A DNA stretch of 56,357 nt from a virus (taxonomy: Duplodnaviria; Caudoviricetes): the IMG/VR virus record IMGVR_UViG_3300049982_000330, positions 1 through 56,357 of that record. The stretch is one strand, 5' to 3'. Of this stretch, positions 27,856-45,906 are shown piece by piece; position 1 is the stretch's first letter, and each line of letters starts with the position of its first letter. Made by a program: the position numbers and the translations under genes. Below the pieces are notes generated by a model. The model did not search any database, had not been told where the DNA came from, and was given only the letters and a program-made list of their open reading frames with translations.

Positions 27856-27949
27856 CCCTCTTTTGAGGGAGAGGCGCCTAACCGCAAGACGGCCCCCGCC
27901 AGCGATTGCAGCGCACGGCGAGGGCCTTGATCGGAAGCAGGTCCGACCC

Positions 27950-28536: not shown

Positions 28537-28697
28537 CCACGGCCGAAGAGATCGCGTTCGTCGACGCCATGACGGCCGACGAGCTGCGCCAGGCGCTGAT
28601 GCACCTGGCCGGGTACTCACCCGACGGGTTCGCCGACGCCATCGCCAAGGTCCAGCGTGACCGCGCCTGGCGTGCCGAGATCGAGGTGTCGAAGTGA
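28533..28697 (+). CDS. Small hypothetical protein
   Basis: ATGA coupling; MTTAEEIAFVDAM... Confidence 0.55.
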   Translation: MTTAEEIAFVDAMTADELRQALMHLAGYSPDGFADAIAKVQRDRAWRAEIEVSK

Positions 28698-29464
28698 AGG
28701 GGGCCCGTGCGATCCGCTGGTCGACGGCGGCCGTCGTGGTGGCGCTCGCGGCCGTCGCCGCCGTGGTGTCCTACCGGCACGCCCTGGAGGTGATCCGCGC
28801 CCACGGCGAGAGCGGGTTCACCGCCTACCTGGTGCCGCTCACGGTCGACGGCCTGATCTACGCGTCATCCATGGTGCTGCTCGACGCCTCCCGGCGCGGC
28901 GTCCGTGTGCCGCCTCTGGCGCGGTGGACGCTCGCTCTCGGCATCGTGGCCACCCTCGCCGCCAACGTGGCTCACGGGCTCGCTCACGGCGTCGTCGGGG
29001 CGGTCGTGGCCGCGTGGCCCGCCGCCGCGTTGGTGCTGTCGTATGAACTGCTGATGGCGCTGATCCGGGGTGCGGCCGTACGGGCGACTGTCCAGAATTG
29101 GACAGTCGAGGCGGTAGCCGCACCCGTGGCCCGGGTGCCGGTGAGTCGCGAGGTGTACGACTGGGCAGCCGAGCGGGACCTGTTCGACTCCGTCGCGGCC
29201 GATGCACCCGGCGCTGTACCCGCCGACGGGCCGCCCGCCGTGGACGTACCCGGCGATGCACCCGAGGCCGACCCCGATCCCGAGTGCGCACCCGGCGACG
29301 TACCCGAGCGCGATCCGCTGTACCCGGAGGCCGTTCGCTTGTACCTCGGCGACGTCGCGAGCGGCGCCGTCCCGCCGCTGCGAGCCATCAAGGCCGACCT
29401 CGGTATAGGCCAAACCAAGGCGCAACAGGTGCAGGGCTATCTACGGACGCTCGCCGCGAGCTGA
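28694..29464 (+). CDS. DUF2637-like membrane protein with C-terminal HTH
   Basis: AAVVSYRH, PLTVDGLI, TLAANVAH, VAAWPAAAL; C-terminal PPLRAIKADLGIGQTKAQQV. Confidence 0.8.
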   Translation: MKGARAIRWSTAAVVVALAAVAAVVSYRHALEVIRAHGESGFTAYLVPLTVDGLIYASSMVLLDASRRGVRVPPLARWTLALGIVATLAANVAHGLAHGVVGAVVAAWPAAALVLSYELLMALIRGAAVRATVQNWTVEAVAAPVARVPVSREVYDWAAERDLFDSVAADAPGAVPADGPPAVDVPGDAPEADPDPECAPGDVPERDPLYPEAVRLYLGDVASGAVPPLRAIKADLGIGQTKAQQVQGYLRTLAAS

Positions 29465-29473
29465 ACGAGTCGA

Positions 29474-29511
29474 GCAGAATGCCCCGCCGGTCGACCGGCG
29501 GGGCATTCTGC
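29474..29511. terminator. Perfect 38-bp palindrome / terminator
   Basis: GCAGAATGCCCCGCCGGTCGACCGGCGGGGCATTCTGC. Confidence 0.75.
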
Positions 29512-29539
29512 GTTCCGGGGTAAGGAGTCTTCAAGGCTC

Positions 29540-29594
29540 TTGACAGCACTCCGGAGGAGGCTGACGATGCGCTGGTCCGAGAAATCTCCGGAAA
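29540..29594 (+). promoter_or_regulatory. Putative promoter and operator
   Basis: TTGACA-N17-GACGAT followed by AGAAATCTCCGGAAA, a motif repeated at 31195. Confidence 0.55.
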
Positions 29595-29616
29595 CACTCA
29601 GGAGAGGGAAAGATCG

Positions 29617-29832
29617 ATGCGCCTACAGTTCCTTGGCAAGGAAACCGACGGCGGTAACTCCCCTACGCTGTGGGACACCGACGGCGACGAGTACGTGATC
29701 CAGGGCTTTACGGTGACCGACGCCGAGGCCCTCGCGGACATCGGCGCCGTTCCTGATGGGGAGCTGATAATCCGCATCCCCAAGCGCCTGATGGACCACC
29801 TGCCGAAGGAGACACATGGACCTGCTGACTAA
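29617..29832 (+). CDS. Small protein of the DUF6879/XRE cassette
   Basis: MRLQFLGK...SPTLW...YVIQG pattern; RBS. Confidence 0.8.
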   Translation: MRLQFLGKETDGGNSPTLWDTDGDEYVIQGFTVTDAEALADIGAVPDGELIIRIPKRLMDHLPKETHGPAD

Positions 29833-30343
29833 GGAGGAATTCCAGCAGAGATTCCACGGGTCGAAGCGGGCCTTCCACCTCGAACTACGGGACGCCTACA
29901 ACGTCACCGCCGAGGATGAGCCGTTCCGGAAGTGGCAGGCCGGCGAGTACGACGACCACGCGTGGCGGCGCCCGTGGCAGGCATTCATTCGCCAGGTGAC
30001 AGGCGCCGGCTGCGCGATGCAGCGGGTCAGGGTCGTCACCGTGCCCCATGCGCGCTACACGCGATGGCTGCTCGACATCGCCGGCGACAACGTTGAGGCC
30101 GGGGAGGACATCCGATACCTGCCACGACACCTCGCCGCGGACATCGACTTCCCCCCGGAGGACTGCTGGTTGTTCGATGACGACCAGCTGGTGCTCAGCG
30201 TGTTCCCGGGCGACGGCCGGGCCGGTGCGTTCGTCGCCGAGACCGATCCCGACCTGATACGCAGGTACCTGATCGCCCGCGATCTGGTGTGGGAGCGCGC
30301 GATCCCGCACGCCGTTTATGTTCACGCGCAGCGCCGCGCCTGA
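29816..30343 (+). CDS. DUF6879-like protein
   Basis: AFHLELRDAY, RVRVV, NVEAGEDIRYLPR and DCWLFDD motifs. Confidence 0.85.
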   Translation: MDLLTKEEFQQRFHGSKRAFHLELRDAYNVTAEDEPFRKWQAGEYDDHAWRRPWQAFIRQVTGAGCAMQRVRVVTVPHARYTRWLLDIAGDNVEAGEDIRYLPRHLAADIDFPPEDCWLFDDDQLVLSVFPGDGRAGAFVAETDPDLIRRYLIARDLVWERAIPHAVYVHAQRRA

Positions 30344-30358
30344 TTCGCCGCTTCGACC

Positions 30359-31195
30359 GTGTCACAGCCGACCGACCAGGCCCGCCAGGCGCTAGGTTCC
30401 CGCCTCCGTGAGATGCGCCAGGACGCGCGGCTCACGGGCCGGGAGCTCGCCGCGCGAGCCGGTTGGCGGCCCCCGAAGGTGTCCAAGCTGGAGCACGGGC
30501 AGCAGAACGCCAGCGAGGAGGACATCCGTACCTGGTGCCAGGTGTGCGGCGCGCGGGACCAGATCCCTGAGCTGATCGCCACGGTGCGCGCGATCGAAGC
30601 GCAGTACATGGAATGGCGACGACAGATGCGGGGAGGTCAACGCCGCGTCCAGAGCGTGCTCCGCGCCGAGGATCTCTCCACCCGCCTGTATCGGATCTTC
30701 GAGCCGTTCCACATCCCCGGCTTCCTCCAGACCCGCGATTACACCCGGGTCATCATGGCGCGCAGTGCCCATTTCTACGAGGCACCGAACGACCTGGAAG
30801 CCGCTGTAGCGGCCCGTCTGGGGCGTCAGACCATTCTTCGAATGGGTGACCGCCGGTTCCACATCGTCGTGGCCGAGCAGGCCCTGTACACCCAAGTGGG
30901 CGGCCCTGAGGTGATGCGCGGCCAGCTCGCCCACCTCCTGGACGAGATGGCCGCGCTGCCCCGGCTGCGTCTCGGCGTCGTTCCCCGCGCCGCCGACTAC
31001 GAGCTCGGCCCCCACGCGGGTTACTGGATCTTCGACGCGCGGCTGGTCATGACGGAGACGGTCACGGCCGTTCTGAACGTCACCCAGCCGCGAGAGGTCG
31101 CCATGTATGAGCGGCACTTCGACGGAATAGCGGGCCTCGCGGTGTACGGCCAGGCGGCCGCTGCCCGAATTACGGCAGCGAGCGAAGCTCTCTAA
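30359..31195 (+). CDS. XRE HTH plus DUF5753-type regulator
   Basis: LREMRQDARLTGRELA...VSKLEHG; IPGFLQT.DY; EQAL. Confidence 0.9.
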   Translation: MSQPTDQARQALGSRLREMRQDARLTGRELAARAGWRPPKVSKLEHGQQNASEEDIRTWCQVCGARDQIPELIATVRAIEAQYMEWRRQMRGGQRRVQSVLRAEDLSTRLYRIFEPFHIPGFLQTRDYTRVIMARSAHFYEAPNDLEAAVAARLGRQTILRMGDRRFHIVVAEQALYTQVGGPEVMRGQLAHLLDEMAALPRLRLGVVPRAADYELGPHAGYWIFDARLVMTETVTAVLNVTQPREVAMYERHFDGIAGLAVYGQAAAARITAASEAL

Positions 31196-31321
31196 GAAAT
31201 CTCAGGAAATCTCGTTGAGTGTGACGCGTGTGCCTGCCGACGATCGGGGGGACGAAAGGCGGGCCCGCCTGGCGCTGATGACGACCAGACGAGCCCTTGA
31301 TCGGACGCGGAGGTCCGACCC

Positions 31322-31531
31322 ATGGCACACCTTAAAGCCACCTCAGTGGACGCGCCCCCAGGATGGCGGGTGTTCCGAAGCGATAAGGGCCGCTTCTGGG
31401 CCACCCGCGAGGAGCCCTACCCCGAGCCCGAGCAAACCGCGTGGCGGACCGTGGACGCCGACGACTTGACCACGCTGTGCCGGACCATCGCCGAGCAGGA
31501 GAGCCGAGCCGAGCTGGGAGCGTCATCATGA
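31322..31531 (+). CDS. Small hypothetical protein
   Basis: GGAGG RBS; GWRVFRSDKGRFWATR...RTVDADD. Confidence 0.7.
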   Translation: MAHLKATSVDAPPGWRVFRSDKGRFWATREEPYPEPEQTAWRTVDADDLTTLCRTIAEQESRAELGASS

Positions 31532-31809
31532 GCGAGTCCGATCTCCACGTCGTGGACACCGACCAGATCAGGGAACAGAAGATCGCCGCCCTGGCCCAGA
31601 CCTACCCGGCGTGGCAGATCCGGTTCGTCGGATCCACCATCGCGGGCCCCATGGGCTGGTGGGCCATGCGGCACGCTCCGCTGACCGAGGCCCAGCGCGC
31701 GGCCGGCCTGGTGCCGTCCATCGCCCGCGGCGACATCGTGTCCCTGGTGATGGAACTCGACGTCCAGGATCAGATCGCCCATCGGACCGGCTACGCGGCC
31801 CGCCCATGA
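31528..31809 (+). CDS. Hypothetical protein
   Basis: ATGA coupling; YPAWQI...WWAMR. Confidence 0.65.
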   Translation: MSESDLHVVDTDQIREQKIAALAQTYPAWQIRFVGSTIAGPMGWWAMRHAPLTEAQRAAGLVPSIARGDIVSLVMELDVQDQIAHRTGYAARP

Positions 31810-32159
31810 GCAGGCCCGGCGGTCGTCCCGCTTCCCAGGTGGAACCCGCCGGGCCGCCGCCGTGCCCAGCGTGGTGCGACTTCCAGCACTCCGAGACTGA
31901 GCCGAGCTGGCGCTGGTACTGGCGCACACATCTCGGCATGGGTCGTACGGTGCCGCTGACGGCGATGCCTTCGGTGGCCAGCCACATCCCGATGCTGATG
32001 TACGACCTCATCCAGCAGCCCGACGGCGAGCCGATGATCCGGATGCGCCGCGACGGCCGTCCGCTGGTGCGGCTCACCTCCGGCGAGGCTCAGCGCCTCG
32101 CCATGGGCCTGGTCGCGCTCGTCGACCAGGCCCGCGCGGAGGCCGAGGGCAGGGCATGA
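31806..32159 (+). CDS. Second CPxWC-motif protein
   Basis: CPAWCDFQH...H; LTSGEAQRLA. Confidence 0.6.
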   Translation: MSRPGGRPASQVEPAGPPPCPAWCDFQHSETEPSWRWYWRTHLGMGRTVPLTAMPSVASHIPMLMYDLIQQPDGEPMIRMRRDGRPLVRLTSGEAQRLAMGLVALVDQARAEAEGRA

Positions 32160-32265
32160 GCGCGCATGCCAGCACCCCGGTTCAAGGGACCTGCTCGTCT
32201 CGTGGCGGCCGAACGCTCGGCCCGCATGGACGGCCCCGGGCGCGGCCGGGCCGCCATGGTCGCGG

Positions 32266-32574
32266 TCATGGCGGGGGCGGGCCGTGGTGCTCGGTGAAGA
32301 AGCGGAGCTCCTCCCACGCCTCCGGGTCCAGCGCGGCGGCCTCGTTGAGCACCTCAGCGAGCAGGCGGCGGGGCAGGCCCGACTCTTCCCACACCGCCCC
32401 GCACGAGCACCGTACGTAGCTCGGATCGTCGCCTGTCTCGTCGAGCAGCACCGACACGGTGAGGATGTGCCGCTCACCGCAGGCCGGACAGCCGATGGGG
32501 CCGTTCAGCCCGATGGCCCCGTTCACCAGGTGCAGGGTGACCTGGGTGATCTGGTGTTCTGCGTGCCCGCTCAC
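32266..32574 (-). CDS. Zinc-ribbon protein coupled to the satellite TMP
   Basis: CPACG...CSCG; GTGA overlap. Confidence 0.65.
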   Translation of the reverse strand: MSGHAEHQITQVTLHLVNGAIGLNGPIGCPACGERHILTVSVLLDETGDDPSYVRCSCGAVWEESGLPRRLLAEVLNEAAALDPEAWEELRFFTEHHGPPPP

Positions 32575-35500
32575 CTCGAACCTCGTTCGACTTGGCGCAG
32601 CCCCTCGCGGATCTGCATGAGGATCTCCCGCCCCGCCACGGTGTGGTTCTCGAAGTTGAGCTTGGCCCCGTTGATGTTGAGCACGAAGTCTCCCTGAATG
32701 GTCGGGCCGCCTCCACGGCCGCTACTTGACGAGGTGCTCACGCTGGCGCCGGACACACTCAACGTCGACCCGCCGGAGGTCGCGAGCGCCGGCCCGCCCC
32801 CGCCGGCGAACCCGAACGTCGGTTGTATGTCCATGGTGGCCATGTCGGCCATGCCGCGAACGGCGTCGAGCACGTGCCCGTACCCGCCTTGGATGCCGCT
32901 GGCCAGGCCCATGGGGATGAACTTGCCGATCGCGGCGAACACCTTGGACGGCGAGGCGATGCCGAGGATCTTCTTGGCCCAGTCGGGCAGCAGGGCGCCG
33001 AACAGGTTCCCGATCTGCTGCTTGAACCAGTTCCACATGCCGACGATGCCGTTCCACAGCCCCGTGATCATGTTGTGGCCAAGCGTGCCGAACATGCCGG
33101 CGAGGTCGCCGATCGCGCCGAGGATCAACCCGGGCAAGCCCTTGAGCCAGGTCACCAGGTCGTTGAACTTGCTGATGGCCCAGTCCTTGGCCTTGCCGAA
33201 CCACTCGGCGAACATGGCGGGCAGGCCCGAGATCCACTTGACGATCCCGTTGACCAGGTCGGGAATGATGCTGTGGCCGATCAACGTGTCGTACAACCAG
33301 GTGAACCAGCCGACAATGGTTTTGATCTTGTCGGCGATGTCGGCGGCGAATGTCGTGATGGCCGGGATGACCACCCCAAGGATCACGCCGACGAGCTTCA
33401 CGAACATGATTTGGACCGGCGCCCACAGCCTGATCAACTCGGCGACCATCGGCAGCATCGGCGTCATCGCGGTGATGAGCTGGACGGCGGCGCCTGCCAG
33501 CTGCACCACGACCGGCGCCAACACCTTGATCCACTCGGCCATGACCGGCAGCAGCGCCTTCACGAGCTCACCCACCACCGGCAGGATCGGCGTGAGCGCT
33601 GTGATCAGCGACAGGAACGCGCCGATCAAGCCAGGCAGCAAGGGGGCGAGCTCCTGCAGATACTTCACCAGCGCCAACCCGATGGTTTGCGCGAGCTCCG
33701 ACAGCACCGGCAGCAGCGGCACGACGGCCTGCACCAGCAGCGAGAGCCCGGTCACGAAGTTCGTCGCGATCAATCCGGCGATCTGCGCGATGATCGGGAT
33801 CAGCGGGGTGATAGCCGGGACCAGCCCGGACACCAGTTGGGTGATCAGTGCGGCGATCTGCGGGAGCAACGGTGCGAGCGCCGGAACCAGGGCGTTGATC
33901 AACGTCGCGGCCAAGCCGAAGATCAGCGGCACGATCGGCGACAACGCGACCACGGCCTGCGCAAACGCCCCGACGAGCAGCTGAATCGACGGCAGAATCG
34001 CGATGATCCCCGACGCCAGGCTCGTGGCGATCAGCAGCACCAGCTGGCCGAGCACCGGCAGCAGCGGGGCGAACGCGGGCACCAGCTGGCCGATGACCGT
34101 TGCCGCCAGCCCGATGATCAGCGGGATGATCGGGGCGAGGGCGGTCAGCATCGAGGCGAACCCGCCGACGAGGACCTGAATCGGGCCCAACATCGCCTGC
34201 ATCCCGGCGGCCAGGCTGGAGGCGATCAGCGTGGCCAGCTGGGAGATCACGGGCAGCAGCGGGGACAGGGACTGCAGGATCTCGCCGAAGACGCGGACCA
34301 TCAGCTGGATCGACGGCAGCATCGCCTGTACGCCTGCAGCAAGCGTGGTGGCGATCAAGGCCGCGAGCTGGCCGACCACCGGTAGCAGAGGCGCGATGGC
34401 TGCGAGGATCCCGCCGAGCGCTGCTCCGATCGGGGCGAGCGCCGGCGCGAGCGACGCGAAACCCGTAGCCACCGCGCCGATGAACGCCTGCAAGCCGGGC
34501 AGGATCGCTGCGATGGCGGGACCGATGGCGGCGATCAGGGGCTGCACGGACGCGAAAGCGGCGCCGATGGCCTGACCGAGGGGAAGCATCGCGGGCGCCA
34601 GGGCGGCGACCGCCTGGCCGATGCCGGCGAACACCGCGATCATCCCCGGGCCGATCGCCGCGACGGCGGGACCGAGCGCGGTGATCGCCGTGGCGAGCAC
34701 CGGGCCGACCATTTGAGCCAGCTGTGCGATGACGGGGGCGAGCTGGGCGATGACGCCCACAACGGCGGTGATCACCGGCAGGAACGATTTGGCGATGGCG
34801 CTCAGCGCGGTGAACACCGCGACCAGCGTTGACTGGCCCTGCGCTGATTTGAGGAACTGGTTCATCCCGTCGAGCAGCTGGCCGATGACGCCGAGTGCGC
34901 TCGCGCCAGAGGCCTGCATGGCGGTGAAGACCGACCGCACGATGCCGCCGACGTCGCCGACGATCGAGCCGAGCTGCTTGAAGACCAGCAGGGCGTTGTC
35001 CATCCATTGCAACGCCTGACCGCTCGCCGCGGCGTTGTACATGAACAGGCCGAACCGCTGCGCCACGGCGGCGATCCCGGGCGCCAGGGCGGCCAGCCAT
35101 CCGGCGCCGACCACACCGAGGTCTCTGAAGCCGTTGAGCAGGGGCGTCAGGGCGGGGATGAAGGCGGTCACCGCGTCATGCAGCGAGGTGAACACGCTGC
35201 GGATCGCCCAGATCGACTCCGATGACCGGGCGAATTCGAGGACCTTCAGCGCGGCCTGGCCGAACTGGCCGGCCACGCTCTCCACCCCGTCGGTCAGGGC
35301 GTTGAGGACGGGCAGCAGCGACCACATCTGGCCGACCAGCGGCCCGAACAGGGCATCCTGAGCGGCGAACTTGAGGCCCTGGAAAGCGGGCGCCATTTGG
35401 AAGAGCTCGTACGCCACCTGGCCGGCGGATGCGCCCAGCCCGGCGGCGGCCGTCATGAACTTGTCGAAATCGCCGGAGATGGCGGCCGCGAAAGCGTCCC

Positions 35501-35975
35501 CGACGCCGCTCAATGCGAGCTTCAGGGTGCCCAGCGCGGCGGCGCCGAGCAGTATCCCTCCCGGCAGAGCGGCGAGGATCCCCACAGCGGGCGCCAGCGC
35601 GGACACCAGGCCGATCGCACCTGAGCCGGCCGTGGCCATCGCAGCCGACAGGACGGCCATCTTCGCCGCGGCGGTGACCAGCGAGACGCCCACACTGACC
35701 AGCGAGCCCACGAAGCTCGCGACGTGGGAGGTTGCCTGGGAGACAGCCGTACTCAGGAGGGCGAACACGGCGCCGATGCCGCTGGAGCCACTGCCGAGAC
35801 GGAGGAAGCCCGCGTTCATCGAGCTCGAGATGCCGTCGAGGCTGCGGAAGCTGCGCTCGGTCCTGTCCGCCTGCCGCGCGACCTTCTCCAGGTCTCGGTT
35901 CACCTTGCCAATCCCGCGATCGGTGTCAGCCATCACCCCAAGGCGGATCATGAGGTTCTTGATTGAGTTCGCCAT
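32571..35975 (-). CDS. Tape measure protein (satellite copy, 1134 aa)
   Basis: True start ATG 35975 with AGAAAGGG RBS; collinear with the helper TMP. Confidence 0.93.
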   Translation of the reverse strand: MANSIKNLMIRLGVMADTDRGIGKVNRDLEKVARQADRTERSFRSLDGISSSMNAGFLRLGSGSSGIGAVFALLSTAVSQATSHVASFVGSLVSVGVSLVTAAAKMAVLSAAMATAGSGAIGLVSALAPAVGILAALPGGILLGAAALGTLKLALSGVGDAFAAAISGDFDKFMTAAAGLGASAGQVAYELFQMAPAFQGLKFAAQDALFGPLVGQMWSLLPVLNALTDGVESVAGQFGQAALKVLEFARSSESIWAIRSVFTSLHDAVTAFIPALTPLLNGFRDLGVVGAGWLAALAPGIAAVAQRFGLFMYNAAASGQALQWMDNALLVFKQLGSIVGDVGGIVRSVFTAMQASGASALGVIGQLLDGMNQFLKSAQGQSTLVAVFTALSAIAKSFLPVITAVVGVIAQLAPVIAQLAQMVGPVLATAITALGPAVAAIGPGMIAVFAGIGQAVAALAPAMLPLGQAIGAAFASVQPLIAAIGPAIAAILPGLQAFIGAVATGFASLAPALAPIGAALGGILAAIAPLLPVVGQLAALIATTLAAGVQAMLPSIQLMVRVFGEILQSLSPLLPVISQLATLIASSLAAGMQAMLGPIQVLVGGFASMLTALAPIIPLIIGLAATVIGQLVPAFAPLLPVLGQLVLLIATSLASGIIAILPSIQLLVGAFAQAVVALSPIVPLIFGLAATLINALVPALAPLLPQIAALITQLVSGLVPAITPLIPIIAQIAGLIATNFVTGLSLLVQAVVPLLPVLSELAQTIGLALVKYLQELAPLLPGLIGAFLSLITALTPILPVVGELVKALLPVMAEWIKVLAPVVVQLAGAAVQLITAMTPMLPMVAELIRLWAPVQIMFVKLVGVILGVVIPAITTFAADIADKIKTIVGWFTWLYDTLIGHSIIPDLVNGIVKWISGLPAMFAEWFGKAKDWAISKFNDLVTWLKGLPGLILGAIGDLAGMFGTLGHNMITGLWNGIVGMWNWFKQQIGNLFGALLPDWAKKILGIASPSKVFAAIGKFIPMGLASGIQGGYGHVLDAVRGMADMATMDIQPTFGFAGGGGPALATSGGSTLSVSGASVSTSSSSGRGGGPTIQGDFVLNINGAKLNFENHTVAGREILMQIREGLRQVERGSR
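33775..35642. repeat. About 1.9-kb direct repeat of 10074-11941 (offset 23,701)
   Basis: Identical shadow ORFs at constant offset; scattered substitutions mostly toward the high-coordinate end. Confidence 0.9.
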
Positions 35976-35977
35976 CG

Positions 35978-36223
35978 TCACCCTTTCTCTGGTTCTCGTC
36001 GGGCCACCTGCCGGCTCGCTCGGGCGCACTCCTGCGAGCACGTGCGCCGACGGCGGCCACCCGACCAGGTGGCCTCGAAGGTCTGGCCGCACACCGAGCA
36101 CGTCGCCTCGTGCCGCGCGCGACGGCACGGCCGGCAGACCCGCAACCCGGCGGGCAGCGAGGTGCTGGTCGACCAGAGCAGGACGCCGCACATCGCGCAC
36201 GGGACATCGGGCCGCCGAGCCAT
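35978..36223 (-). CDS. Multi-CxxC zinc-finger protein
   Basis: CAMC, CRPC, CSVC, CSQEC; GGAGG RBS before ATG 36223. Confidence 0.65.
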   Translation of the reverse strand: MARRPDVPCAMCGVLLWSTSTSLPAGLRVCRPCRRARHEATCSVCGQTFEATWSGGRRRRTCSQECARASRQVARREPEKG

Positions 36224-36301
36224 CCCGTCACCTCCCTGTCGCCGACTACGCCGGGTGACCAGCACGCGGTCACTCTGTGCCATCTCTTCGCCCTCACTCT
36301 G

Positions 36302-36436
36302 AGTGATGATCTTGAGGCCGATTACTCTGTGAAGTGGGGAGGGAAAAGGGCGCTAAGGGCGCGGGTCCCCCGTGATCGTTGATCTACGTCGCGAGGGTGC
36401 CCCCTCCGGCGCTATGACCTGCGAAAACGTCGCCGC
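36302..36436. repeat. Satellite copy of the putative cos/packaging site
   Basis: 132/135 identical to 46227-46361, same orientation, non-coding. Confidence 0.85.
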
Positions 36437-36964
36437 ATTGTCGCTGAGGGTCGATTGCATGCTGTTTATATGTTTGATCTTCGTCACTGAGCGTGTTTGG
36501 CGCAGTGTCACGTAACGTCATCACTTACGTCATCGCTTACGTGTTGATCTTCACGTTGTTTGCGTTGTGTGATCGGTGACTGGCTGGCCACCGCGCCATC
36601 CGCACCGCTCGGCCTCGGCTCGCGCGCATCAGCACGACGTGACGCTGTCGCGCCAGGTATGCACAGATGATCACGACTGCGAGACGCGTGAGCAGCGAGC
36701 GTCGAGCGGCGACTGTGGAAGCACGATCGCTGTGACGTACATCGTCGGCTGATGCATCGAGCTGCGTGTGATCGCTGTGTGCGAGCCATGGTGGCTGTGG
36801 TGGATAGGTGGCAGAACCGATGCTGATCAGCTCGGCGGGCGCGGTGTTCGAGCGTGACCGGCAGCGCCTGTGCCGCGTGCGGCTCGGCCGCCAGGAGGAC
36901 AGGGCCCACCGAGTGTGCCGGGCCCCCAAAGGTCGCCACCGCTCATTGGCGAATGGGCCCCGGG

Positions 36965-37495
36965 TCATGCCGTCTCCCGTGCGGCGGCCCGACGCTCGAG
37001 GTGGCACCGCTCCTCAATCCGGATCAGGGTCCGGCGTGCTGCCCCGAGGCGCTCGCCCGCCGCGCTCCGCGCCCTGTAGAGCCGACTCTCCGCAGCTTCC
37101 AGGACGTGACGCCGTGCCTGTGTGGGTTCCCTCGCGGGGTAGTCCGCCGGGGAGAGCATTGCGCCCCTCGGCCCCGTGTTCGCCCCCGCGGCCGTGGCCT
37201 CGATCAGCGCCCGTTGGTGCGCCATATCGGCCATGGTGTAGCTCGCGAGCGCCTCGTCGACGGCCTGCTGCGCCTCGGCTATCTGCGGCGCGAACCGGTC
37301 GATCACCTCCTGCTCGGCCTCGCCGATCGGGTCCGGCGCCGGACCGAGCAGCTTGCTCGGGTCGATGACCAACCCGTCGCGCCAGCAGAACCAGCCCGAG
37401 GGCATCGGGCGGCACCGCTTGGCCCCATATCCGACCGGCCTCCCGCAGCGATGGCACCGCTCGCTCGCGGCCTTGTTCTCGGCTGACAGCCTCAC
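36965..37495 (-). CDS. Hypothetical protein (Cys motif plus helical region)
   Basis: GTGA coupling to the upstream gene. Confidence 0.55.
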   Translation of the reverse strand: MRLSAENKAASERCHRCGRPVGYGAKRCRPMPSGWFCWRDGLVIDPSKLLGPAPDPIGEAEQEVIDRFAPQIAEAQQAVDEALASYTMADMAHQRALIEATAAGANTGPRGAMLSPADYPAREPTQARRHVLEAAESRLYRARSAAGERLGAARRTLIRIEERCHLERRAAARETA

Positions 37496-38496
37496 CTCGT
37501 CGCCTCCAGCCAGTAGGTGGCGCGCGCCATTTCCTCGTAGGCGCGCGCGGCATCCTCGTCGCCGCCGGCCATGTGCCTGACCTCGTGCCCGGTGATCGCG
37601 TCCAGCTCAGCCGCCTGGCACAGCGCGTCGGCGTTCAACCAGACTTCACCCGCCCAGGACACCGCCTTGCCGAGCAGCTGGTCACTCGGCCAGCCGAAGC
37701 CCGGCCGGGCGGACTCGCCGTACATCTCCAGGTAGTCGCGTTCGCCGTCGGTCTCGCTGCGGAACCAGCGCAGCCGAGGCCGCGGGGCGACCTTCAACCG
37801 CTCGCAGTGCTTGGTAAGCGCCGAGTCGACGATGACGCGTTTCCAGGCCGGAACCTCATCCGCCGCGAGTTCGACGTACCAGCTCGACACGTGCCGCTCC
37901 GCTTCCATCAGGACCGTGCGCGCGTGCTCGCGTTCCTCAAGATCCCGAAGGTTCCGCTTCACGATTTCGCAGGTGTTGACGACGGCGAGCCGCTCCATCC
38001 ACGCCCGGGTCTCGGCGTCGAGTTCGCCGGGCGGCCTGTTGTGCTTGACGGCGAGGGTCCGCGTGCCCACGCCAGCCCCGCGAAGGACTGGGCTGACCTC
38101 GAACACCTGTACCTCTTCGATGAAGCGCACCCGCTGGCCGGCGAACTCGCCGAACGACTCCTTGGTCACGTTGTAGCCGTAGCTCCACTCCTGGAGGCCG
38201 CCGAGCTGCTTGACGACGGTGAAGGTGTCGCGACCGGCCATGGTGTCGAGGAAGAACCGGCCTTCCAGGATCGCCTCATTGGCGGTCTGCCGGATGGTGC
38301 CCAGCCCGACCGGAAGCTCGCCGTCCCAGGTCCTGTGGCCGTAGCTGGAAATCACGACGGGCGCACCGTCGGCGAACGCTCCCGGCCGTGTCACATCCCG
38401 ATCGGAGTCGATCGCGTTGAACGTCGAGAAGATGGCCCGCACTTCGCCCTTGGACTCGTCCTTGATCTCCAGCAGGAGACTCTTGGTGTCCACCAT
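37492..38496 (-). CDS. Prohead protease paralog fused to an HEXXH domain
   Basis: First ~150 aa align with the helper protease; C-terminal ITGHEVRHMAG. Confidence 0.85.
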   Translation of the reverse strand: MVDTKSLLLEIKDESKGEVRAIFSTFNAIDSDRDVTRPGAFADGAPVVISSYGHRTWDGELPVGLGTIRQTANEAILEGRFFLDTMAGRDTFTVVKQLGGLQEWSYGYNVTKESFGEFAGQRVRFIEEVQVFEVSPVLRGAGVGTRTLAVKHNRPPGELDAETRAWMERLAVVNTCEIVKRNLRDLEEREHARTVLMEAERHVSSWYVELAADEVPAWKRVIVDSALTKHCERLKVAPRPRLRWFRSETDGERDYLEMYGESARPGFGWPSDQLLGKAVSWAGEVWLNADALCQAAELDAITGHEVRHMAGGDEDAARAYEEMARATYWLEATR

Positions 38497-38886
38497 TCAC
38501 CCCTCCCTTCTGCGCGCGGCCTCGGCCGCGACGGCGTCGCGCTCGAAGACCCACCGGCCCCGCTCCAGGCGTCCGCCGAGTTCGGCGGCGAGCTGGCGCA
38601 CGCGGCGCGCGGTGAGTCCGAGCAGCGCCGCGACCTGATCGGCGCTCAGAGGCGAGGATCGCCCGATTTCCGCGATCGGCGTTTCCGAGCTTCCGTTCGG
38701 CAGGTCAGGGCGTTTCCGCGCCCGTCCGGCTCGCTCCAGGTCACCGATCGCGGCCAGCAGCTCGGCACGCGCGTGCGGCGCCACCCGATCGAAGTAGCCC
38801 TTCCGCGCCAGGTCGCGAAGGGCGACGCCGGCGAGCTGCGCGATCTGCCCGGACAGGACCGCGGCGTCCTGGACGTAGGCCACCAA
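38497..38886 (-). CDS. HTH DNA-binding protein (excisionase/AlpA-like C-terminus)
   Basis: LSADQVAALLGLTARRVRQLA...GRWVF. Confidence 0.75.
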   Translation of the reverse strand: MVAYVQDAAVLSGQIAQLAGVALRDLARKGYFDRVAPHARAELLAAIGDLERAGRARKRPDLPNGSSETPIAEIGRSSPLSADQVAALLGLTARRVRQLAAELGGRLERGRWVFERDAVAAEAARRREG

Positions 38887-38887
38887 C

Positions 38888-39055
38888 TCACCTGCCGTCC
38901 GCGGCTCGGACGGGCCAGCGCTCGCTAAAACAAAGGACGTGCATCCAGTCGCCTCGGGCGCCGATGCGGCAGATCCGTTCCCCGATGTGGATCGCGCGAC
39001 GACACAGCGGACAACGGCTCTCCCTGCGCGCCTTCCGCGCGTGGGTGGCGATCAT
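38888..39055 (-). CDS. Small zinc-finger protein
   Basis: CPLC...IHIGERI...WMHVLC. Confidence 0.6.
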   Translation of the reverse strand: MIATHARKARRESRCPLCRRAIHIGERICRIGARGDWMHVLCFSERWPVRAADGR

Positions 39056-39888
39056 GCCGACCTCGCCATGGCCCGGCACTGCGGGCACTGCGGCAGACCG
39101 GTGTCCGGGCGCGCCTGGTCGCCGCCGGGTGTGCCGTGCTCGCACGGCGGCATCTGACCGATCGAGGCCAACCACACGCCGATGTCGGACCGGCCGCGCG
39201 CCGTACGTACCCGCACGAGCACCGGGGCCAGGTCCCCGTGATGGGCCATGGTGCGCAGGAGGCCGGGAAGCGATCGGACCTTGTTCTCAGCCTCGATCGT
39301 CTTGATGACGCTCTCTGCCTCCTCCTCGGTGGCGCCCGTGGCGGCCGTCACGATCCGTACGGCTCGCGCCCGCGCGGATGAGGAGTTCTTGAGGATCTCT
39401 GAGGAGATGGGTCCCCCGCTTGGGGGAGCTTCAGCACTTGAAGCTCTCCCGCTTGGGGGAGCTTCGGGACCAGGCGGGGGAGCTTCAGCACTCGAAGGTC
39501 TCCCGGATGGGGGAGCTTCAAGCTCTCCCGCTTGGGGGAGCTTCAGCGCCGGGCATTCGCCGGGCCTCGGAATGTAGAACTCCATGGCATGGCCGTTGCA
39601 GGCGAAGAGCATGCGCCCCCGGTCGTCAGTGACCGCCTGGCCCTGCTTGTCGCGGACCGGCACGCGGAGCTCGATGCCGTTCGCTCCGAGTTTGCCCAGC
39701 ACCTTGCCGAGCTGCTTGAGGTCTGCAAAGCCCGTCCGGCGGATCACCGTCGCGATCACCGCTCCGCCGTACGCGCGGCGAGTCCGCTCGTTGGCCTGGT
39801 CGGCGATCTCCAGGGCCACCAGCCGCTCGCCGGAGGACAGGCCAGGCGGCAGATGCTCGGCGAGCCAGCGCCGCAGCTCGTAACCCAT
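39052..39888 (-). CDS. Putative replication initiator
   Basis: LSSGERLVALEIADQAN wHTH-like N-terminus, internal iterons, C-terminal CEH...CPQC; start ATG 39888. Confidence 0.7.
   Translation of the reverse strand: MGYELRRWLAEHLPPGLSSGERLVALEIADQANERTRRAYGGAVIATVIRRTGFADLKQLGKVLGKLGANGIELRVPVRDKQGQAVTDDRGRMLFACNGHAMEFYIPRPGECPALKLPQAGELEAPPSGRPSSAEAPPPGPEAPPSGRASSAEAPPSGGPISSEILKNSSSARARAVRIVTAATGATEEEAESVIKTIEAENKVRSLPGLLRTMAHHGDLAPVLVRVRTARGRSDIGVWLASIGQMPPCEHGTPGGDQARPDTGLPQCPQCRAMARSA
39422..39544. repeat. Five GGGGGAGCTTC direct repeats (putative ori iterons)
   Basis: Copies at 39422, 39455, 39476, 39509 and 39534. Confidence 0.8.
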
Positions 39889-40169
39889 CAGGTCTCGCCG
39901 GCTTCCTGCTCTTCGCGCTCCCGGCGAAGCGCCTCGGCACTGATCTCCACCAGGGCCCGGCGCCGCGGCGAGGTGTTCATCTGGTCGCCGTGCATCGCGG
40001 GCGGCAGTCGGCCGTTCCACATATCCGGCGTACTGAAGAACAGCGGCGCCTGCGTGAGCCGGGCGCGCAGGTCGACGTACGCGAGCACCCGGGCCCGGCG
40101 CGCGGCGCACTCAGCTCGCTCATCGGCAGCGGCCTTCCTCAGCAGCGCTGCCCACTCCTGGCCCTTCAC
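39888..40169 (-). CDS. Hypothetical protein
   Basis: Coupled within the operon. Confidence 0.6.
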   Translation of the reverse strand: MKGQEWAALLRKAAADERAECAARRARVLAYVDLRARLTQAPLFFSTPDMWNGRLPPAMHGDQMNTSPRRRALVEISAEALRREREEQEAGET

Positions 40170-40414
40170 GGCGTCACGCCCGCGAGCGTGCCGCGCTGCC
40201 GGGCGATCTGACCCAGCTCCTCGAGTTGGGTCAAGCGGTCAAGGACGCGTTGCCGATCAGCTGGCCGCAACGACCGCAGCGCGGCGGCAGCAGACCGCCC
40301 ACAGGAGTTTGCCCGCGCTCTGTCGGACCGGCGCTGTACGCTGACACCATCGTCGTTAACGCGTTTCGAGGCCGCTCCTGCCCGGGGGCGGCCTTCGGCG
40401 TTCTCAGGCCACAT
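40166..40414 (-). CDS. Hypothetical protein
   Basis: GGAGG RBS; coupled to the next gene. Confidence 0.45.
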   Translation of the reverse strand: MWPENAEGRPRAGAASKRVNDDGVSVQRRSDRARANSCGRSAAAALRSLRPADRQRVLDRLTQLEELGQIARQRGTLAGVTP

Positions 40415-40646
40415 GGCGCACCTCCCCGCCCGCGTCCTGGTGGCCGAGGAGCACCTGAGCGAGGCGCACGCGTTGCTCGGGAGTCGGACTCGGTTCTGAA
40501 CCGATGAGCCGCTGGATGTAGTCCTCTGCGGCTAGGACCTTGAGGTCCCGGCGCTGGGTTTCAACCAGCTCAAGCCGATCCGGATGATGGCGCCTGGTGG
40601 CTGCGTGCTGTGCCCGTAAGCGGCGGCGCTCAGGAGAAAGAGACAT
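40404..40646 (-). CDS. Putative recombination directionality factor (phiRv1 Rv1584c-like)
   Basis: RRDLKVLAAEDYIQRLIGSEPSPTPEQRVRLAQVLL matches my recollection of the phiRv1 RDF pattern; downstream of the serine integrase. Confidence 0.65.
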   Translation of the reverse strand: MSLSPERRRLRAQHAATRRHHPDRLELVETQRRDLKVLAAEDYIQRLIGSEPSPTPEQRVRLAQVLLGHQDAGGEVRHVA

Positions 40647-40795
40647 GGATCCCCCAGAAGGCAAATGCCTTGTAAGGGGCTCCTCATACGTGGCCGTCTC
40701 GGGAGCCGGTTTCGCGTCGCCGGGTAGACCAGGCCCCACGTAGGCCCCGCGACACGCCCTGCCGTGCACAGGACAGTAGCAAGTCACCCAGGCGT

Positions 40796-41095
40796 TCACA
40801 TGCCATATCGGCTAGGAGGCTGGAGAGATTCAGTCGGACCGTAACTCTCGTCCAGATTGGAATGATCAACACGAGAAAGCCCCGGACCTTGGTCCAGGGC
40901 TTCGTCTCTGCACTGAGCACAATGGCACTGCGGCGGAGGATCGACGGGCAGGCCGGCGGCTATCTTCTGCCGTCGCCGTTCCAGCGCCACGGCGAGCATG
41001 CGCACCGTCCGATGCACCCTCGCCGTCATGCCAGCGGAGTTTTCCTCGGGATCGTGGGTCTCAGACATGGCTGGAAATATCCTTTCCTTGCGCAT
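40796..41095 (-). CDS. Hypothetical protein
   Basis: ORF with CHCAQC; weak support. Confidence 0.35.
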   Translation of the reverse strand: MRKERIFPAMSETHDPEENSAGMTARVHRTVRMLAVALERRRQKIAAGLPVDPPPQCHCAQCRDEALDQGPGLSRVDHSNLDESYGPTESLQPPSRYGM

Positions 41096-41098
41096 AGC

Positions 41099-41131
41099 AA
41101 AGAGCCGCGAGGGATATGCTCGCGGCTCTTT
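41099..41131 (-). terminator. Terminator downstream of the integrase
   Basis: 13-bp stem AAAGAGCCGCGAG/CTCGCGGCTCTTT. Confidence 0.75.
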
Positions 41132-41154
41132 CGCTGGGTTTAGGTGCAGCGCGC

Positions 41155-42849
41155 CTACCGGCGCCAGGTGATTGTCATTCGGTCAGTGTTCGCCGTTGGG
41201 CGACGATTCTTCCCCGGGCCGGGCTCGTACCCCAGTTCTTGGATGGCGGCTCTCACACGCTTCTCCAGTTCGGGTGACTTGGCCTTTCCCAGGATTACCA
41301 GACTGACGAACCCCTGACTGACACCAGCGTGCTCGGCAACGTCCTTCTGCGTCACGCGCTTGGTGGAGTGAAGGGACCGATTCTCGTAGTGGATCGTGAC
41401 CTTTGCGATCCAGTCATCGACGAATTTCCGTTGCTCGTCGAGATGCATCTCCGGCCACAAGGTCCGAAGCTCCTCGGGGTCGATGTCCCCGACCGGTGCA
41501 GGCAGCTCGGCGAGCTCGCGTTCGAACGTCTGAGCCTCCTTCATCAGCCCGTCATTCATGACGTTGAACTGCTCCGTGGTGAGCTTGCGCCCGTTCCACA
41601 TCTGAGCCAGCTCACCGCGCCGAAGGTCGAGGGCATCGAGTTTCTTCACCAGGTCTTCGCGGCGCGCGAAAAAACTGTCCTGTGCGAGCAGTCGGGCGGC
41701 GTTGTACTCCTTCAGCTTCTTGAAAAGGTGAACGGCTACGTGTCCTTCTGCCGCCCTGGCGTCGATGGTCGTCCGGCCACATCCGCCGGTCACCTTCGTG
41801 TCGCAGGCGTAGTAGGCGTAGTCGCCGCTGGGCCGCGCCTGCATTGGCTTGTCACAGACCCCGCAGAACGCCCGGTAACCGGTCAGCAGGTAGGCACGCC
41901 CCGACCTGCGTCGCGTCTTCTTCCGCGAACCGATGACGGCGCACAGCGCCCGCCATGTCACCTCGTCAAGGATGGGGGGCCAAGTCGCTTTACCCACGAT
42001 CTCGCCTCGGTGGACACGCAGCCCGGCAACGCACGGCGCGGTCAGGAAGTCGGCAACGCTCGTGGCAACGAACCGGCCGCCGTGCTTGCCTCGCAGGCCC
42101 CTGCTGTTAAGCCACGCGGCTACGTGCGCCAGGCCCCATCCGTTCAGGATGCGGTTGGCGCACTCCGTGATGATCTCGGCTTCCTCGGGCATGATCTCGG
42201 CGCTCTTGCGTCCCTGCTCATCGAGGACGGCCCGCCCGCCCGCAGGCCGCGGATTGTCGGCCTTCCACTGCCGCATCTCCTGGCCGCGGATCCTGGCCTG
42301 ATGGCGGCGCTCCTGCCACTCCTGGAGGCGGCTCTGCTCCTCCGGAGTCAGGATCACCTGCCGGTAGCCGTAGCCGAGACGGCCAGGCGGGCGCCCCTGT
42401 GAGGCAAGTTCGCTTTTTTTATCGAGGATGCGCTTCCGGAGCTGCTTGACCTCGTGCGCGCCGAGAACCGCATTGATCCCCGCGAAGACGCCGTCAACGT
42501 CGATGACGCCGTTCCGCTTGGTGTGAACCTCCGTGACACCAGCCTGCGCGAGGTCGGCCGCCAAGCTGAACCACTCGACCTCGCGGCGGGTGAGCCGGTT
42601 CTGCTCGACGGACCACAGGTGAGCAGACTCGCCGCGCCGGATCGCGTCCCGCATCTTCTCGAACTCCGGGCGAAAGACATCGTCCTTGGCCGCCGACAAG
42701 TCGTTGTCGGCGAAGACCTTGATCGGCATGTCGGGCCACCGGTCCCCGGCGTACTCGCGGCCCCACTTCTCCTGTGCCTGCACCCCCTCGGCGCGTCCTT
42801 GCTGGTCGGCGCTGATCCGGCAGTAGATGAAGACGTATCCCGTGCTCAT
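41155..42849 (-). CDS. Large serine recombinase (integrase) with LacI-type HTH insert
   Basis: YCRIS catalytic motif, DNDLSA, RPEF, NRLTR; zinc ribbon CGVC...YYAC...C; coiled coil. Confidence 0.95.
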   Translation of the reverse strand: MSTGYVFIYCRISADQQGRAEGVQAQEKWGREYAGDRWPDMPIKVFADNDLSAAKDDVFRPEFEKMRDAIRRGESAHLWSVEQNRLTRREVEWFSLAADLAQAGVTEVHTKRNGVIDVDGVFAGINAVLGAHEVKQLRKRILDKKSELASQGRPPGRLGYGYRQVILTPEEQSRLQEWQERRHQARIRGQEMRQWKADNPRPAGGRAVLDEQGRKSAEIMPEEAEIITECANRILNGWGLAHVAAWLNSRGLRGKHGGRFVATSVADFLTAPCVAGLRVHRGEIVGKATWPPILDEVTWRALCAVIGSRKKTRRRSGRAYLLTGYRAFCGVCDKPMQARPSGDYAYYACDTKVTGGCGRTTIDARAAEGHVAVHLFKKLKEYNAARLLAQDSFFARREDLVKKLDALDLRRGELAQMWNGRKLTTEQFNVMNDGLMKEAQTFERELAELPAPVGDIDPEELRTLWPEMHLDEQRKFVDDWIAKVTIHYENRSLHSTKRVTQKDVAEHAGVSQGFVSLVILGKAKSPELEKRVRAAIQELGYEPGPGKNRRPTANTDRMTITWRR

Positions 42850-43865
42850 AGTTCGGATTGTGGTTTAGGTGGGGTGCAACCGGCGAGCCCTTCGCTGAAG
42901 CCCACGATGACCGCCGGGACACCGGCCGCCGCCGCCATGCGCGTCTCGCCGGCGCCCTGGGTCGCCTTGAAGTCGAGCTGCTGCAGGTCCTTGCCGACGA
43001 CGTTCACATCCGCGCCGCCGCCCAGGTAGAGCGTCTTGTACGCGTTGTCGACGCCCCGGTGCTGCTCGTTCATGACGGCGATGAACCGCTTGAGCATGTC
43101 GGGCGTGACGCTGGCGTCCAGCGACACAACGACCTGCGGCGTCGCGCCGTTCTCGAAGAACGCGCCCTTGTGCTTGGTCGCCGCGAGGTCGGAGGAGATC
43201 TCCCGCAGGATCGGGGTGATCCAGCTCATGCCCCGCCAGTGGCACTCCGGGTCCGGGATGGGCGCGAAGTGCGCCACCTGCGACGGAAGGAGGAACCACT
43301 CCTTCTTCGTCATGGGCGGCGCGTAGAAGTAGCCGAGCACCTCGGCGTCCAGCGCGTGGCCGTACAGCTCCGGCTCGGACTTGGAGCCGCTGACGATCGT
43401 CACCCAGTCGGGCCGGAGCCGGCGCAGGCGGCCGGGCTGACCGGGCACCTTGGCGATGAAGGAGTTGCCCGCCAGGTCGACGTCTTGGATCTTCCTGGCC
43501 AGCAGGTCACCGGTGGTGCCGTTCGGCCACGGCCGCTCGAGCAAAGCGAGGTCCTTGTTGCCGAACAGGTCACCCGGGCGGCCGTTCTTGATCCGCCGGA
43601 ACTGGAAGCGGGCCTCGGAGAAGACGAGCATCCGGGTCGCCATCAGCGCGAAGATGGGGCCGTTGGACTTCGCGATGCCCTGGACGTAGCCCTCGAAGTC
43701 GTTCTCGATCTGCTCGCGCTCACCGTTCAGCGACGTCGAGCCGAGGAACGGGAAGCGCAGCCGATCGAGATCCCAGAAGTCTGGCTCCGACCAACCCTTC
43801 TGCGGATTCCGGGCAGGCTTACGCCCGCCACGGTGCGCCGCCGTGACCCGCTCGATCAGGCCCAT
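42846..43865 (-). pseudogene. Portal protein, 5' fragment (HK97-type)
   Basis: LLERPWPN, LAGN, LRPDWV, GMSW, FFENGATP and AAAAGVP motifs; follows terL. Confidence 0.92.
42850..42900. other. att junction at the portal 5' side (core CGG 42880-42882, minus strand)
   Basis: Portal-like sequence ends at ...GFSEGLAG, followed by 10 unrelated codons and a TGA overlapping the integrase ATG. Confidence 0.8.
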
Positions 43866-44340: not shown

Positions 44341-45906
44341 TCACACCCACACCGCGAACGGTTCGACGACTTCTTCCTCGATGTGGCCCCGGGTCGCCAA
44401 CCCCCAGGCGGCCGACGTGACCGCGACCAGCGCGCTGATGTCCACCGTCGCCGCCTTGGAGTCCCAGGCCTTGGCATCCCCGAGCGGCCGCGTCACCGCG
44501 CCGGCCAGAGCGACGTCCAGGGCGGGGTGAGGCAGGTACCGCAGCGTCGGCTCGCCCTGCTCCGGCATCACCGCGTCGACGAACTGGCCGAACGCGTGCC
44601 CGACTTCCCTTGCGGTGGGCTTCACGATGTCCAGCTTCACGACCTCGCCGGTCGCCGGATCCACGATCTTCACCGCTTCCAGATCGGCGATCAGCGACCC
44701 GGCGGGGCTCCCGGCATCCACCACCCACGCGCACGGATCCCACCGCTCCTGCAGCTGCTTCGCCCGAGCCGGAACCCACTTGGTCCCAGGCCGGTAGTCG
44801 ATGACCTCGATGTGCGTCAGCCCGTCCGCGCGCTGCCCCGCCGTACCGATCGCCGCCCAGCTGCGGTCAGGGGCGACGTGAATGGCGAACGCCACCCGGC
44901 CGACCGCCTCCGACCCCCGGTAGATCAGGGTGCCGTCGTCGTCCCGCACTTCCGGATCGGCCAGCGCCCGCCACTTGTCCTCGGGGATGACCTCCCACTT
45001 GGACTCCTCATCCACCGGCCAGTCGCCGACGCCGAGGCGCTCGCGAGCAAAACCCTTCGCGCCCATGGACGCACGCTCGCGTTCGACGTGCTCCAGGGAG
45101 ATCCGGATGCCGAGCGCCGGGTTCGCCTTCGCCACGCTCACCGGGTCTTCGGGGTTGTCGTGCTCGGTGCAGGTGATGACGTTCCGCTCGTCGCGCTCGC
45201 ACTGGTCGGTGTGCGGGTTGATGCTCCACTCCGCGTAGACCAGGCTCAGGTCACCGCCCTTGATGCCCCGCCGGCGCACCCGGGCCAGCTGCTCGCACGG
45301 GGCGATCGTCTTGTCGGCGGCCGACGACCCGTACCACAGCTGCGGATTCTCCCTCGCGCTCATCGTCGGCATCAGCGCGTCCACGCTGGTCGCAGGCAGG
45401 TTGAACGCCTCGTCCATGATGTTGACGTCGCCCGAGAAGCCACGGCCGGAGCCGGTCGAGCGGGCGACGAAACGGAGCCTCTGCCCCGACAGCAGCTCGA
45501 TGCCCTCATCGCCGTGCGAAGTGCGGATGCGCCGCACACGCTTGCGGAAGTCGTCATGGTTCTCGACCAGCGCCTGCATCCGCAGGAACATCTCCTGCGC
45601 CGTCTTGAACTCGTGCGCGCTGTAAAGGATCAGCTGCTCGCCGAACAGGAACAGACCGCCCAGGCACCTGGCCTCGAAGATCGACCCCTTGCCGTTCTGC
45701 CGGGAGACCACGATGCCGACCTCGAAGGCCGCCCATCGGCCGTCCTCGCGCTCGCCCAGGCCGTGGTGGAGGCAGTACTCCTGCCAGGGGTCCATCGTCA
45801 GGCCCGCCGAGGCCGCCAGTTCGACGACCTCCTGGCCGGCGGAGGAGACGTAGGGCGGGATCCACGAGATCCGCGGAGTCTGGACGCCGATGAGCGTCTC
45901 GGTCAT
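44341..45906 (-). CDS. terL: Terminase large subunit
   Basis: DPWQ, Walker A VSRQNGKG, GRGFSGD..IMDEA, ANPALG, RERLG; start ATG 45906. Confidence 0.95.
   Translation of the reverse strand: MTETLIGVQTPRISWIPPYVSSAGQEVVELAASAGLTMDPWQEYCLHHGLGEREDGRWAAFEVGIVVSRQNGKGSIFEARCLGGLFLFGEQLILYSAHEFKTAQEMFLRMQALVENHDDFRKRVRRIRTSHGDEGIELLSGQRLRFVARSTGSGRGFSGDVNIMDEAFNLPATSVDALMPTMSARENPQLWYGSSAADKTIAPCEQLARVRRRGIKGGDLSLVYAEWSINPHTDQCERDERNVITCTEHDNPEDPVSVAKANPALGIRISLEHVERERASMGAKGFARERLGVGDWPVDEESKWEVIPEDKWRALADPEVRDDDGTLIYRGSEAVGRVAFAIHVAPDRSWAAIGTAGQRADGLTHIEVIDYRPGTKWVPARAKQLQERWDPCAWVVDAGSPAGSLIADLEAVKIVDPATGEVVKLDIVKPTAREVGHAFGQFVDAVMPEQGEPTLRYLPHPALDVALAGAVTRPLGDAKAWDSKAATVDISALVAVTSAAWGLATRGHIEEEVVEPFAVWV

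Follow-up and report, generated by a model that had tools for sequence, protein, structure and literature searches.

We think it likely that the DNA analysed here records a case of cos piracy, in which a satellite is embedded in its helper, an HNH-associated cos siphophage present as a prophage. The window, by which we mean the whole stretch examined, comprises all 56,357 bases of an IMG/VR provirus record whose completeness is estimated at 84%, and it consists of high-GC, actinobacterial-type DNA with nearly all of its genes on the minus strand. A non-coding block in the packaging region of the helper recurs almost unchanged within an inserted element that splits the helper portal gene, and because of this near-identical copy of the cos region aboard, the element can probably get packed in helper particles.

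A non-coding block present in two copies

The first-pass annotation of the window had reported a duplicated and non-coding block of 135 bp, and recomputation gave the same result. By direct comparison, 132 of 135 bases are identical between 36302-36436 and 46227-46361, with mismatches at 36317, 36318 and 36342 and an exact run of at most 94 nt. A repeat search reports the pair as 36294-36456 and 46219-46381 (93% identity), and blastn widens it to 36294-36487 and 46219-46411 (88% identity). The limits from blastn agree with another observation in the annotation, namely that weaker similarity continues out to a common 13-mer; this 13-mer occurs at exactly two places in the window, 36475-36487 and 46399-46411, and there is likewise no third copy of the block in the whole record. 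Neither copy is coding, as judged from third-position GC and from the lack of a frame across either, and genes start just downstream of both copies on the minus strand (46184 to 45903 on the helper side, and 36283 to 35978 in the element). In the following, the predicted helper cos region is delimited as 46219..46411 (minus strand), with the near-identical core at 46227-46361, and the element-borne copy as 36294..36487 (minus strand), with the core at 36302-36436.

Packaging genes of the helper

On the minus strand, the gene order of the helper is HNH, AAA_33, the block, a 93-aa gene, TerL and the first ~330 codons of a portal gene of the PF04860 type. The HNH endonuclease gene (46935..47219, minus strand; phrog_338, E = 7e-7) is syntenic in relatives, and it is followed by the gene of an AAA_33 ATPase that is polynucleotide-kinase-like (46443..46880, minus strand; PF13671, E = 4e-10; phrog_4581). 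The gene at the homologous position in phage Eyre is annotated as polynucleotide kinase / HNH. The large terminase gene TerL (44341..45906, minus strand; phrog_9, E = 2.5e-74) begins with an ATG that overlaps the stop codon of the small gene. A 593-aa ORF at 44341-46122 was considered as an N-terminally extended TerL and was dropped, since frame analysis resolved it into a separate small gene and a TerL start at 45906.

The small gene (45903..46184, minus strand; GC3 0.86-0.97) encodes a conserved helical protein of 93 aa, which is 66-76% identical across six relatives and is terS-like by position only. Searches of Pfam and PHROG gave no family beyond the uncharacterized phrog_6975. Foldseek matched nothing to the structural model of the protein (four helices, pLDDT 75) at E <= 0.001, and a sequence search of the PDB yielded nothing below E = 0.019. 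The earlier placement of the helper copy between HNH/AAA and terS was therefore right as to position, and the name terS in it should be read as a positional label.

The order HNH-AAA-block-small gene-TerL-portal-protease-capsid recurs in relatives, which are prophages and MAG contigs titled Nocardioides, Streptomyces, Nonomuraea, Planotetraspora and Thermoactinospora. In one related viral contig (L008, 402-2951), the TerL match is split into two parts about 1 kb apart (402-695 and 1692-2951), suggesting an intein or a homing-endonuclease insertion.

Genome ends of related phages

Alignment of the intergenic regions of the relatives revealed a near-invariant C/T-rich motif, consisting of TTTCTCTCCCC, nine bases and AGTAATC, along with other short conserved elements. 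Searches with TerL, with the motif and with the small gene yielded seven distinct viral records. In four records of the linear class (G001, G002, G003 and G009), the contig ends lie 8, 8, 4 and 0 nt before the motif, respectively, so that the ends of four different phages fall within 8 nt of one another. The linear record G003 spans 83,685 nt, with a completeness rating of 93%, and its two ends abut inside the block without overlap: the AAA_33 homologue is 148 nt away from one of them, and the small gene is 91 nt away from the other. From the GATC site to the motif anchor, G003 has 13 nt, and the prophage-state sequences (the helper, L003, L004 and L005) have 24-25 nt; the shorter distance could mean either an indel or that a single-stranded overhang was lost. 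The site is internal, and not at the record end, in the provirus G010 and in L078. A more distant relative, L077 (TerL 55%), continues past the position without the block, and it is uninformative on the ends because the block is absent and the HNH gene abuts the small gene.

The same interval between genes contains the ends of the genomes deposited for two cultured phages with a TerL 38-39% identical, BaileyBlu and Eyre. At the right end, the HNH gene is 158 nt away in BaileyBlu, and in Eyre 41 nt separate that end from the HNH/kinase gene plus a small gene; at the left end of both, a small gene starts 110-115 nt in and is followed by TerL. The first bases of these two genomes resemble those of G001 and G002. 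A scan of metagenome contigs with the motif returned 17 matches, two of them genuine (G001 and G002 themselves, of 7,478 and 12,487 nt) and 15 by chance, and a scan of genome contigs returned 18, comprising four true relatives, with the site internal in all, and 14 chance matches. With the motif variant carried by the element, the scan gave a single match, by chance. At the nucleotide level, the block had no match in 50,697 phage records, and an exact 28-mer of its core had 0 matches in viral contigs and 0 in genome contigs.

It is conceivable that the contig ends of relatives reflect breaks in the assembly, and at this repeat the k=31 contigs of the run that contains the present record do break. 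Such a reading of the ends is weakened by the agreement of four phages within 8 nt, by the abutting ends of G003 and by the absence of a second motif copy from related viral records. A second copy was found in 0 of 5 host genomes and in 0 of 5 related viral records; it is specific to the present record among those compared. With records of relatives ending inside the block, both ends of G003 included, and with the ends of BaileyBlu and Eyre in the same gap, the first-pass proposal that the block serves the helper as cos is well supported, and we regard it as very likely that the block is a cos region of the helper type. The left genome end, near which the nicking site of the helper is predicted, would then sit at ~46279 in the helper (range 46271-46279), and its equivalent at ~36354 in the element (range 36346-36354). 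The comparison locates the predicted cos, together with likely terminase-binding motifs, for a whole group of uncultured actinophages.

Sequence features around the predicted end

Putative binding motifs are concentrated in the two regions: the sequence WAGATCR occurs 14 times on the minus strand of the 56 kb window, and seven of these occurrences are in the two cos regions. The helper has three such sites, which bracket the predicted end (46232-46238, 46305-46311 and 46399-46405, minus strand), and the element has four (36307-36313, 36380-36386, 36475-36481 and 36545-36551, minus strand), that is, one extra site upstream relative to the helper. The spacings are 73 and 95 nt in the element (the first two) versus 73 and 94 nt in the helper, and the sites are conserved in relatives. 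The outermost shared site is the 13-mer, which is identical at 13/13 positions in a flank that is only ~50% identical. These arrays probably represent candidate terminase-binding sites of a cosB/cosQ-like kind, and the whole layout looks like the cosQ-cosN-cosB type. In lambda, which has this layout, protein-binding repeats lie on either side of the nicking site, and the small terminase gene comes next.

Two other features of the surroundings were observed. At 46330-46350, and in the corresponding regions of relatives, a CAGGTCA.AG element is conserved and a small palindrome of a G-run and a C-run occurs, some 50-85 nt before the predicted end. In the interval 36510-36900, ~400 nt upstream of the cos copy of the element, GC3 is low in all frames, and short direct repeats and the fourth AGATC site are present; for these reasons, the ORFs at 36508-36939 and 36537-37007 are perhaps not real genes.

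The position of the block, with each copy directly upstream of a co-oriented operon, is also what might be expected if its role were mainly transcriptional, that is, if it were a late promoter or activator target common to the packaging operon of the helper and the Zn-ribbon/TMP operon of the element, with cos secondary or separate. Both copies indeed contain TTCACA-16-GATCAT on the coding strand (46258 to 46231 and 36333 to 36306), which amounts to one sigma-70-like match per region versus 0.1 expected. However, this match, the only signal found for the late promoter that the first-pass annotation had considered possible, is only 9/12, its -35 hexamer is not conserved in relatives and its -10 hexamer overlaps the repeated AGATC site, and the most conserved bases of the region coincide with the record ends, not with promoter-like hexamers. 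We thus consider a mainly transcriptional role improbable. The proposal that the block encodes a structured RNA, either a leader or a small RNA, common to both replicons is very hard to credit: the single-sequence fold had z = -2.8, but no Rfam family was found, and RNAalifold with seven sequences gave -17.5 kcal/mol over 294 columns with a covariation term of +1, which does not support a conserved structure.

An element inserted in the portal gene

The second copy of the block lies within an inserted element of 15,631 bp (27249..42879, minus strand), which is co-oriented with the late operon of the helper and has GG as the core of each junction. It divides the portal gene into an N-terminal part on the attL side (42880..43865, minus strand; PF04860) and a C-terminal part on the attR side (26825..27248, minus strand), which were both located by tblastn with an intact portal and by the junction alignment. 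With the intact portal of a relative as the query, residues 45-329 matched 43736 to 42873, and residues 324-452 matched 27259 to 26873. The two halves are contiguous in all relatives having the sequence (7/7). Alignment placed the junctions at base level between 42880 and 42879 and between 27249 and 27248, which defines the extent of the insert, and when the outer portal parts are joined there, the frame is restored to the codon and the sequence matches that of the relatives.

The contigs of the run bridge both junctions with 0 differences and at similar depth (36407-46297 and 26601-28023), confirming the integrated state, although they are not independent support because this is the only run holding the sequence and probably its source. 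The latter point, together with the presence of two repeats (the block and an identical patch in the tape-measure genes described below) that could mislead an assembler, bears on the possibility that two phages were chimerically joined at repeats. The portal junctions, however, are unique sequence, each bridged by contigs as stated; the portal halves fit to the codon; and the helper-side gene order is that of all relatives. An assembly artefact is therefore a very remote explanation of the arrangement. The joint of an excised form with restored portal, 27248 to 42880, had no match among the joints listed for that run (sides of 20-32 letters).

At the attL end, the element encodes a large serine integrase of 564 aa (41155..42849, minus strand) with Resolvase, Recombinase and Zn_ribbon_recom domains (PF00239, PF07508 and PF13408; phrog_95, E = 2e-68). 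The truncated portal frame stops at a TGA (42846) that overlaps the integrase ATG (ATGA, 42846-42849), and because of this stop/start overlap the integrase is possibly translated by re-initiation upon late expression of the helper. Integrase searches of viral contigs, genome contigs and phage records found no related element. Viral contigs gave no relatives of the integrase; those in genome contigs are 31-39% identical, save one N-terminal fragment of 65%; and in phage records, the best match is <=28%, with all matches among those listed being in records of at least 41 kb. The closest relative (L055, 9408-10240) is 65% identical over the first 79 aa and is cut by the contig end. It adjoins a 191-aa DUF222 protein, which is maybe truncated, and an ATP synthase operon; the predicted target of this relative is a chromosomal gene, not the portal.

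Gene content of the element and exchange with the helper

In the element, the Pfam and PHROGs matches comprise the integrase, a protease, a tape-measure protein (TMP) and regulators, and neither database gave a terminase, capsid or portal family, with several small ORFs having no family. Together with the serine integrase and the split portal, this agrees with the view taken in the first-pass annotation that the second copy is borne by a satellite-like element. An HTH_17 protein is encoded, and a regulator module with DUF6907, DUF2637, DUF6879 and HTH_31/DUF5753 is in the opposite orientation.

Directly downstream of the cos copy of the element is the gene of a double zinc-ribbon protein of ~100 aa (35978..36283, minus strand; phrog_1271, E = 2.9e-6). 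In the distant relative L077 (875-1546), an HNH endonuclease of 223 aa has N-terminal Zn-ribbon repeats to which this protein is similar (39% over 67 aa, E = 5e-7), and the endonuclease gene directly precedes the small gene and TerL there; the protein of the element has no HNH domain.

The full-length TMP gene of the element (32571..35975, minus strand; ~1,134 aa; PHROG TMP families) is a paralogue of the helper TMP gene at 8843-12238, with 87% nucleotide identity. The two share a 100%-identical run of 1,391 nt (33814-35204 and 10113-11503), flanked by sequences of 91-97% identity and then of 55-75%, which points to a recent gene conversion. Since exchange between the helper and the element is active, as the TMP patch indicates, the identity of the block copies is no proof of selection.

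The same patch bears on the possibility that the block copy is a passive by-product of recent recombination or gene conversion with no packaging role, the element being maybe a decaying and immobile mosaic. A recent exchange of this kind could yield the block identity without selection, and the lack of an excised form among the joints listed for the one run and of relatives of the element in the integrase searches fits such a by-product as well. So does a substitution in the element copy, T to C (G at 36342 on the plus strand), affecting a position of the motif that shows no variation across all helper-type sequences; the site might be weakened by it. On the other hand, long ORFs are intact in the element, including those of the integrase (564 aa) and the TMP (~1,134 aa), and the preservation of the 13-mer outside the core amid a diverged flank suggests constraint. 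Moreover, the copied stretch is just the part conserved around the termini among helper-type phages, and an element without a terminase has an obvious use for such a site. We consider a passive by-product unlikely, and cos piracy remains our preferred reading.

The element also carries a paralogue of the S78 prohead protease (37492..38496, minus strand; PF04586, phrog_80), whose helper copy is at 25731-26828. The paralogues have 70% nucleotide identity over 38053-38495, and they are alike in the N-terminal protease domain only, the C-terminal halves being different. The protease of the element could interfere with head assembly or remodel it. In the interval 39422-39544, there are three copies of a 44-nt unit with palindromic GGGGGAGCTTC...GAAGCTCTCCC elements and a weak coding signal, and these iteron-like repeats may be a candidate replication origin or an operator array.

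Comparison with known satellites

Cos piracy by satellites is already known. According to passages of PMC5052747, the cos SaPIs SaPIbov4 and SaPIbov5 (helpers phi12 and phiSLT) have no terminase genes and carry a highly conserved copy of the helper cos, their helpers are HNH-associated cos phages, and the efficiency of transfer tracks the similarity of cos. Like those islands, as they are described there, the present element is without terminase genes and has a helper-like cos and a paralogue of a head protein (Ccm in the islands, the protease here). Unlike those islands, which are chromosomal and come from Firmicutes, it lies inside the portal gene of its helper, has a large serine integrase and a TMP, consists of high-GC, actinobacterial-type DNA and is known here from sequence alone.

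The position within the helper recalls the HE-PICIs (e.g. 11capE in prophage 50icd), which are embedded in late genes of the helper, portals included, and have captured helper late genes (PMC10111431). For one HE-PICI, the same source gives in part of its text a 258-bp stretch, 90% identical to the helper, at a position that maps to the cos of lambda, and packaging by means of the helper cos was presumed. The HE-PICIs form one integrase clade from Gram-negative hosts with an Int/AlpA-Bro-replication-late layout, and the paper on them makes no mention of serine recombinases (PMC10111431); tyrosine integrases are given as typical of phage satellites in the relevant part of PMC10690885. The present element is likewise embedded in one of its helper's late genes, the split portal, and co-oriented with it. 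It differs in its large serine recombinase, in having no AlpA/Bro family among its Pfam and PHROG matches and in a portal of the PF04860 type; on account of the recombinase and the lack of an AlpA/Bro family, it would work like an HE-PICI without being a member of that group. The serine-integrase, actinobacterial-type and helper-embedded form appears to be new: among the papers listed by literature searches on helper-embedded satellites, there was no actinobacterial or serine-integrase example, the strategy being described only for one Gram-negative integrase clade (PMC10111431). If the element is active, it would represent convergent evolution of the helper-embedded strategy with a different recombinase.

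An active element would also connect this strategy with the EPIPs, actinobacterial satellites that bear a TMP and were reported recently. Those of Mycolicibacterium aichiense are found as free 11-kb particles and encode a serine integrase, an HTH protein, a scaffolding-type head protein and a TMP, which is unusual in satellites (PMC12822802). They also encode terS, a head-tail adaptor/stopper and capsid-related proteins, they have little similarity to their helper, and the main text of the report has no mention of cos (PMC12822802). When the element is set against the EPIPs by description, it shares with them the serine integrase, the HTH, a scaffold-type protein and the TMP, and it differs in its size of 15.6 kb, in its embedding in the helper, in the absence of terS, adaptor and capsid families from its Pfam and PHROG matches and in its long stretches identical to the helper. 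Capsid genes of their own are present in the Streptomyces satellites MiniFlayer, MulchRoom and Ando, according to passages of PMC10690885 and PMC13587820.

For P4, it is stated in part of PMC10690885 that the terminase of the helper P2 packages the satellite through the satellite's own cos sites. The P4/P2 and lambda sites have a layout similar to that of the present block and no sequence relation to it, the binding role of WAGATCR and an overhang being putative here.

Beyond these likenesses, we tentatively propose, as a possibility that we regard as somewhat doubtful, that the element is the actinobacterial, serine-integrase counterpart of the helper-embedded satellites and is independent of the Gram-negative HE-PICIs. 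Its features would be a portal held hostage, an ATGA-coupled integrase, a pirated cos, its own TMP and protease paralogues and, directly after cos, a nuclease-less Zn-ribbon protein, which together with the extra AGATC site and the T to C change could bias the helper terminase toward the satellite. The helper and satellite copies of cos form a natural variant pair for tests of packaging specificity.

A possible course of mobilization

We infer that the element would be packaged by the helper terminase, that the site would be cleaved in this phage and that the element would excise and replicate. In such a course, late transcription of the helper would cross the small gene, TerL and the portal stub and pass into the co-oriented element, and the stop/start overlap could couple translation of the integrase to late expression of the helper. 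Excision, for which a directionality factor would be needed, would rebuild the portal gene, and because excision restores that gene, capsid assembly of the helper would depend on the element leaving. The excised circle would then replicate, perhaps from the iteron-like repeats at 39422-39544, and the helper terminase, with HNH, would cut at the cos copy of the element and package it. At 15.6 kb, the element is ~38% of the helper part, a rough ratio because that part (40.7 kb) is incomplete and the share of a complete genome would be smaller. A size of this order comes close to the range in which small capsids are used, or multimers packaged, by known satellites.
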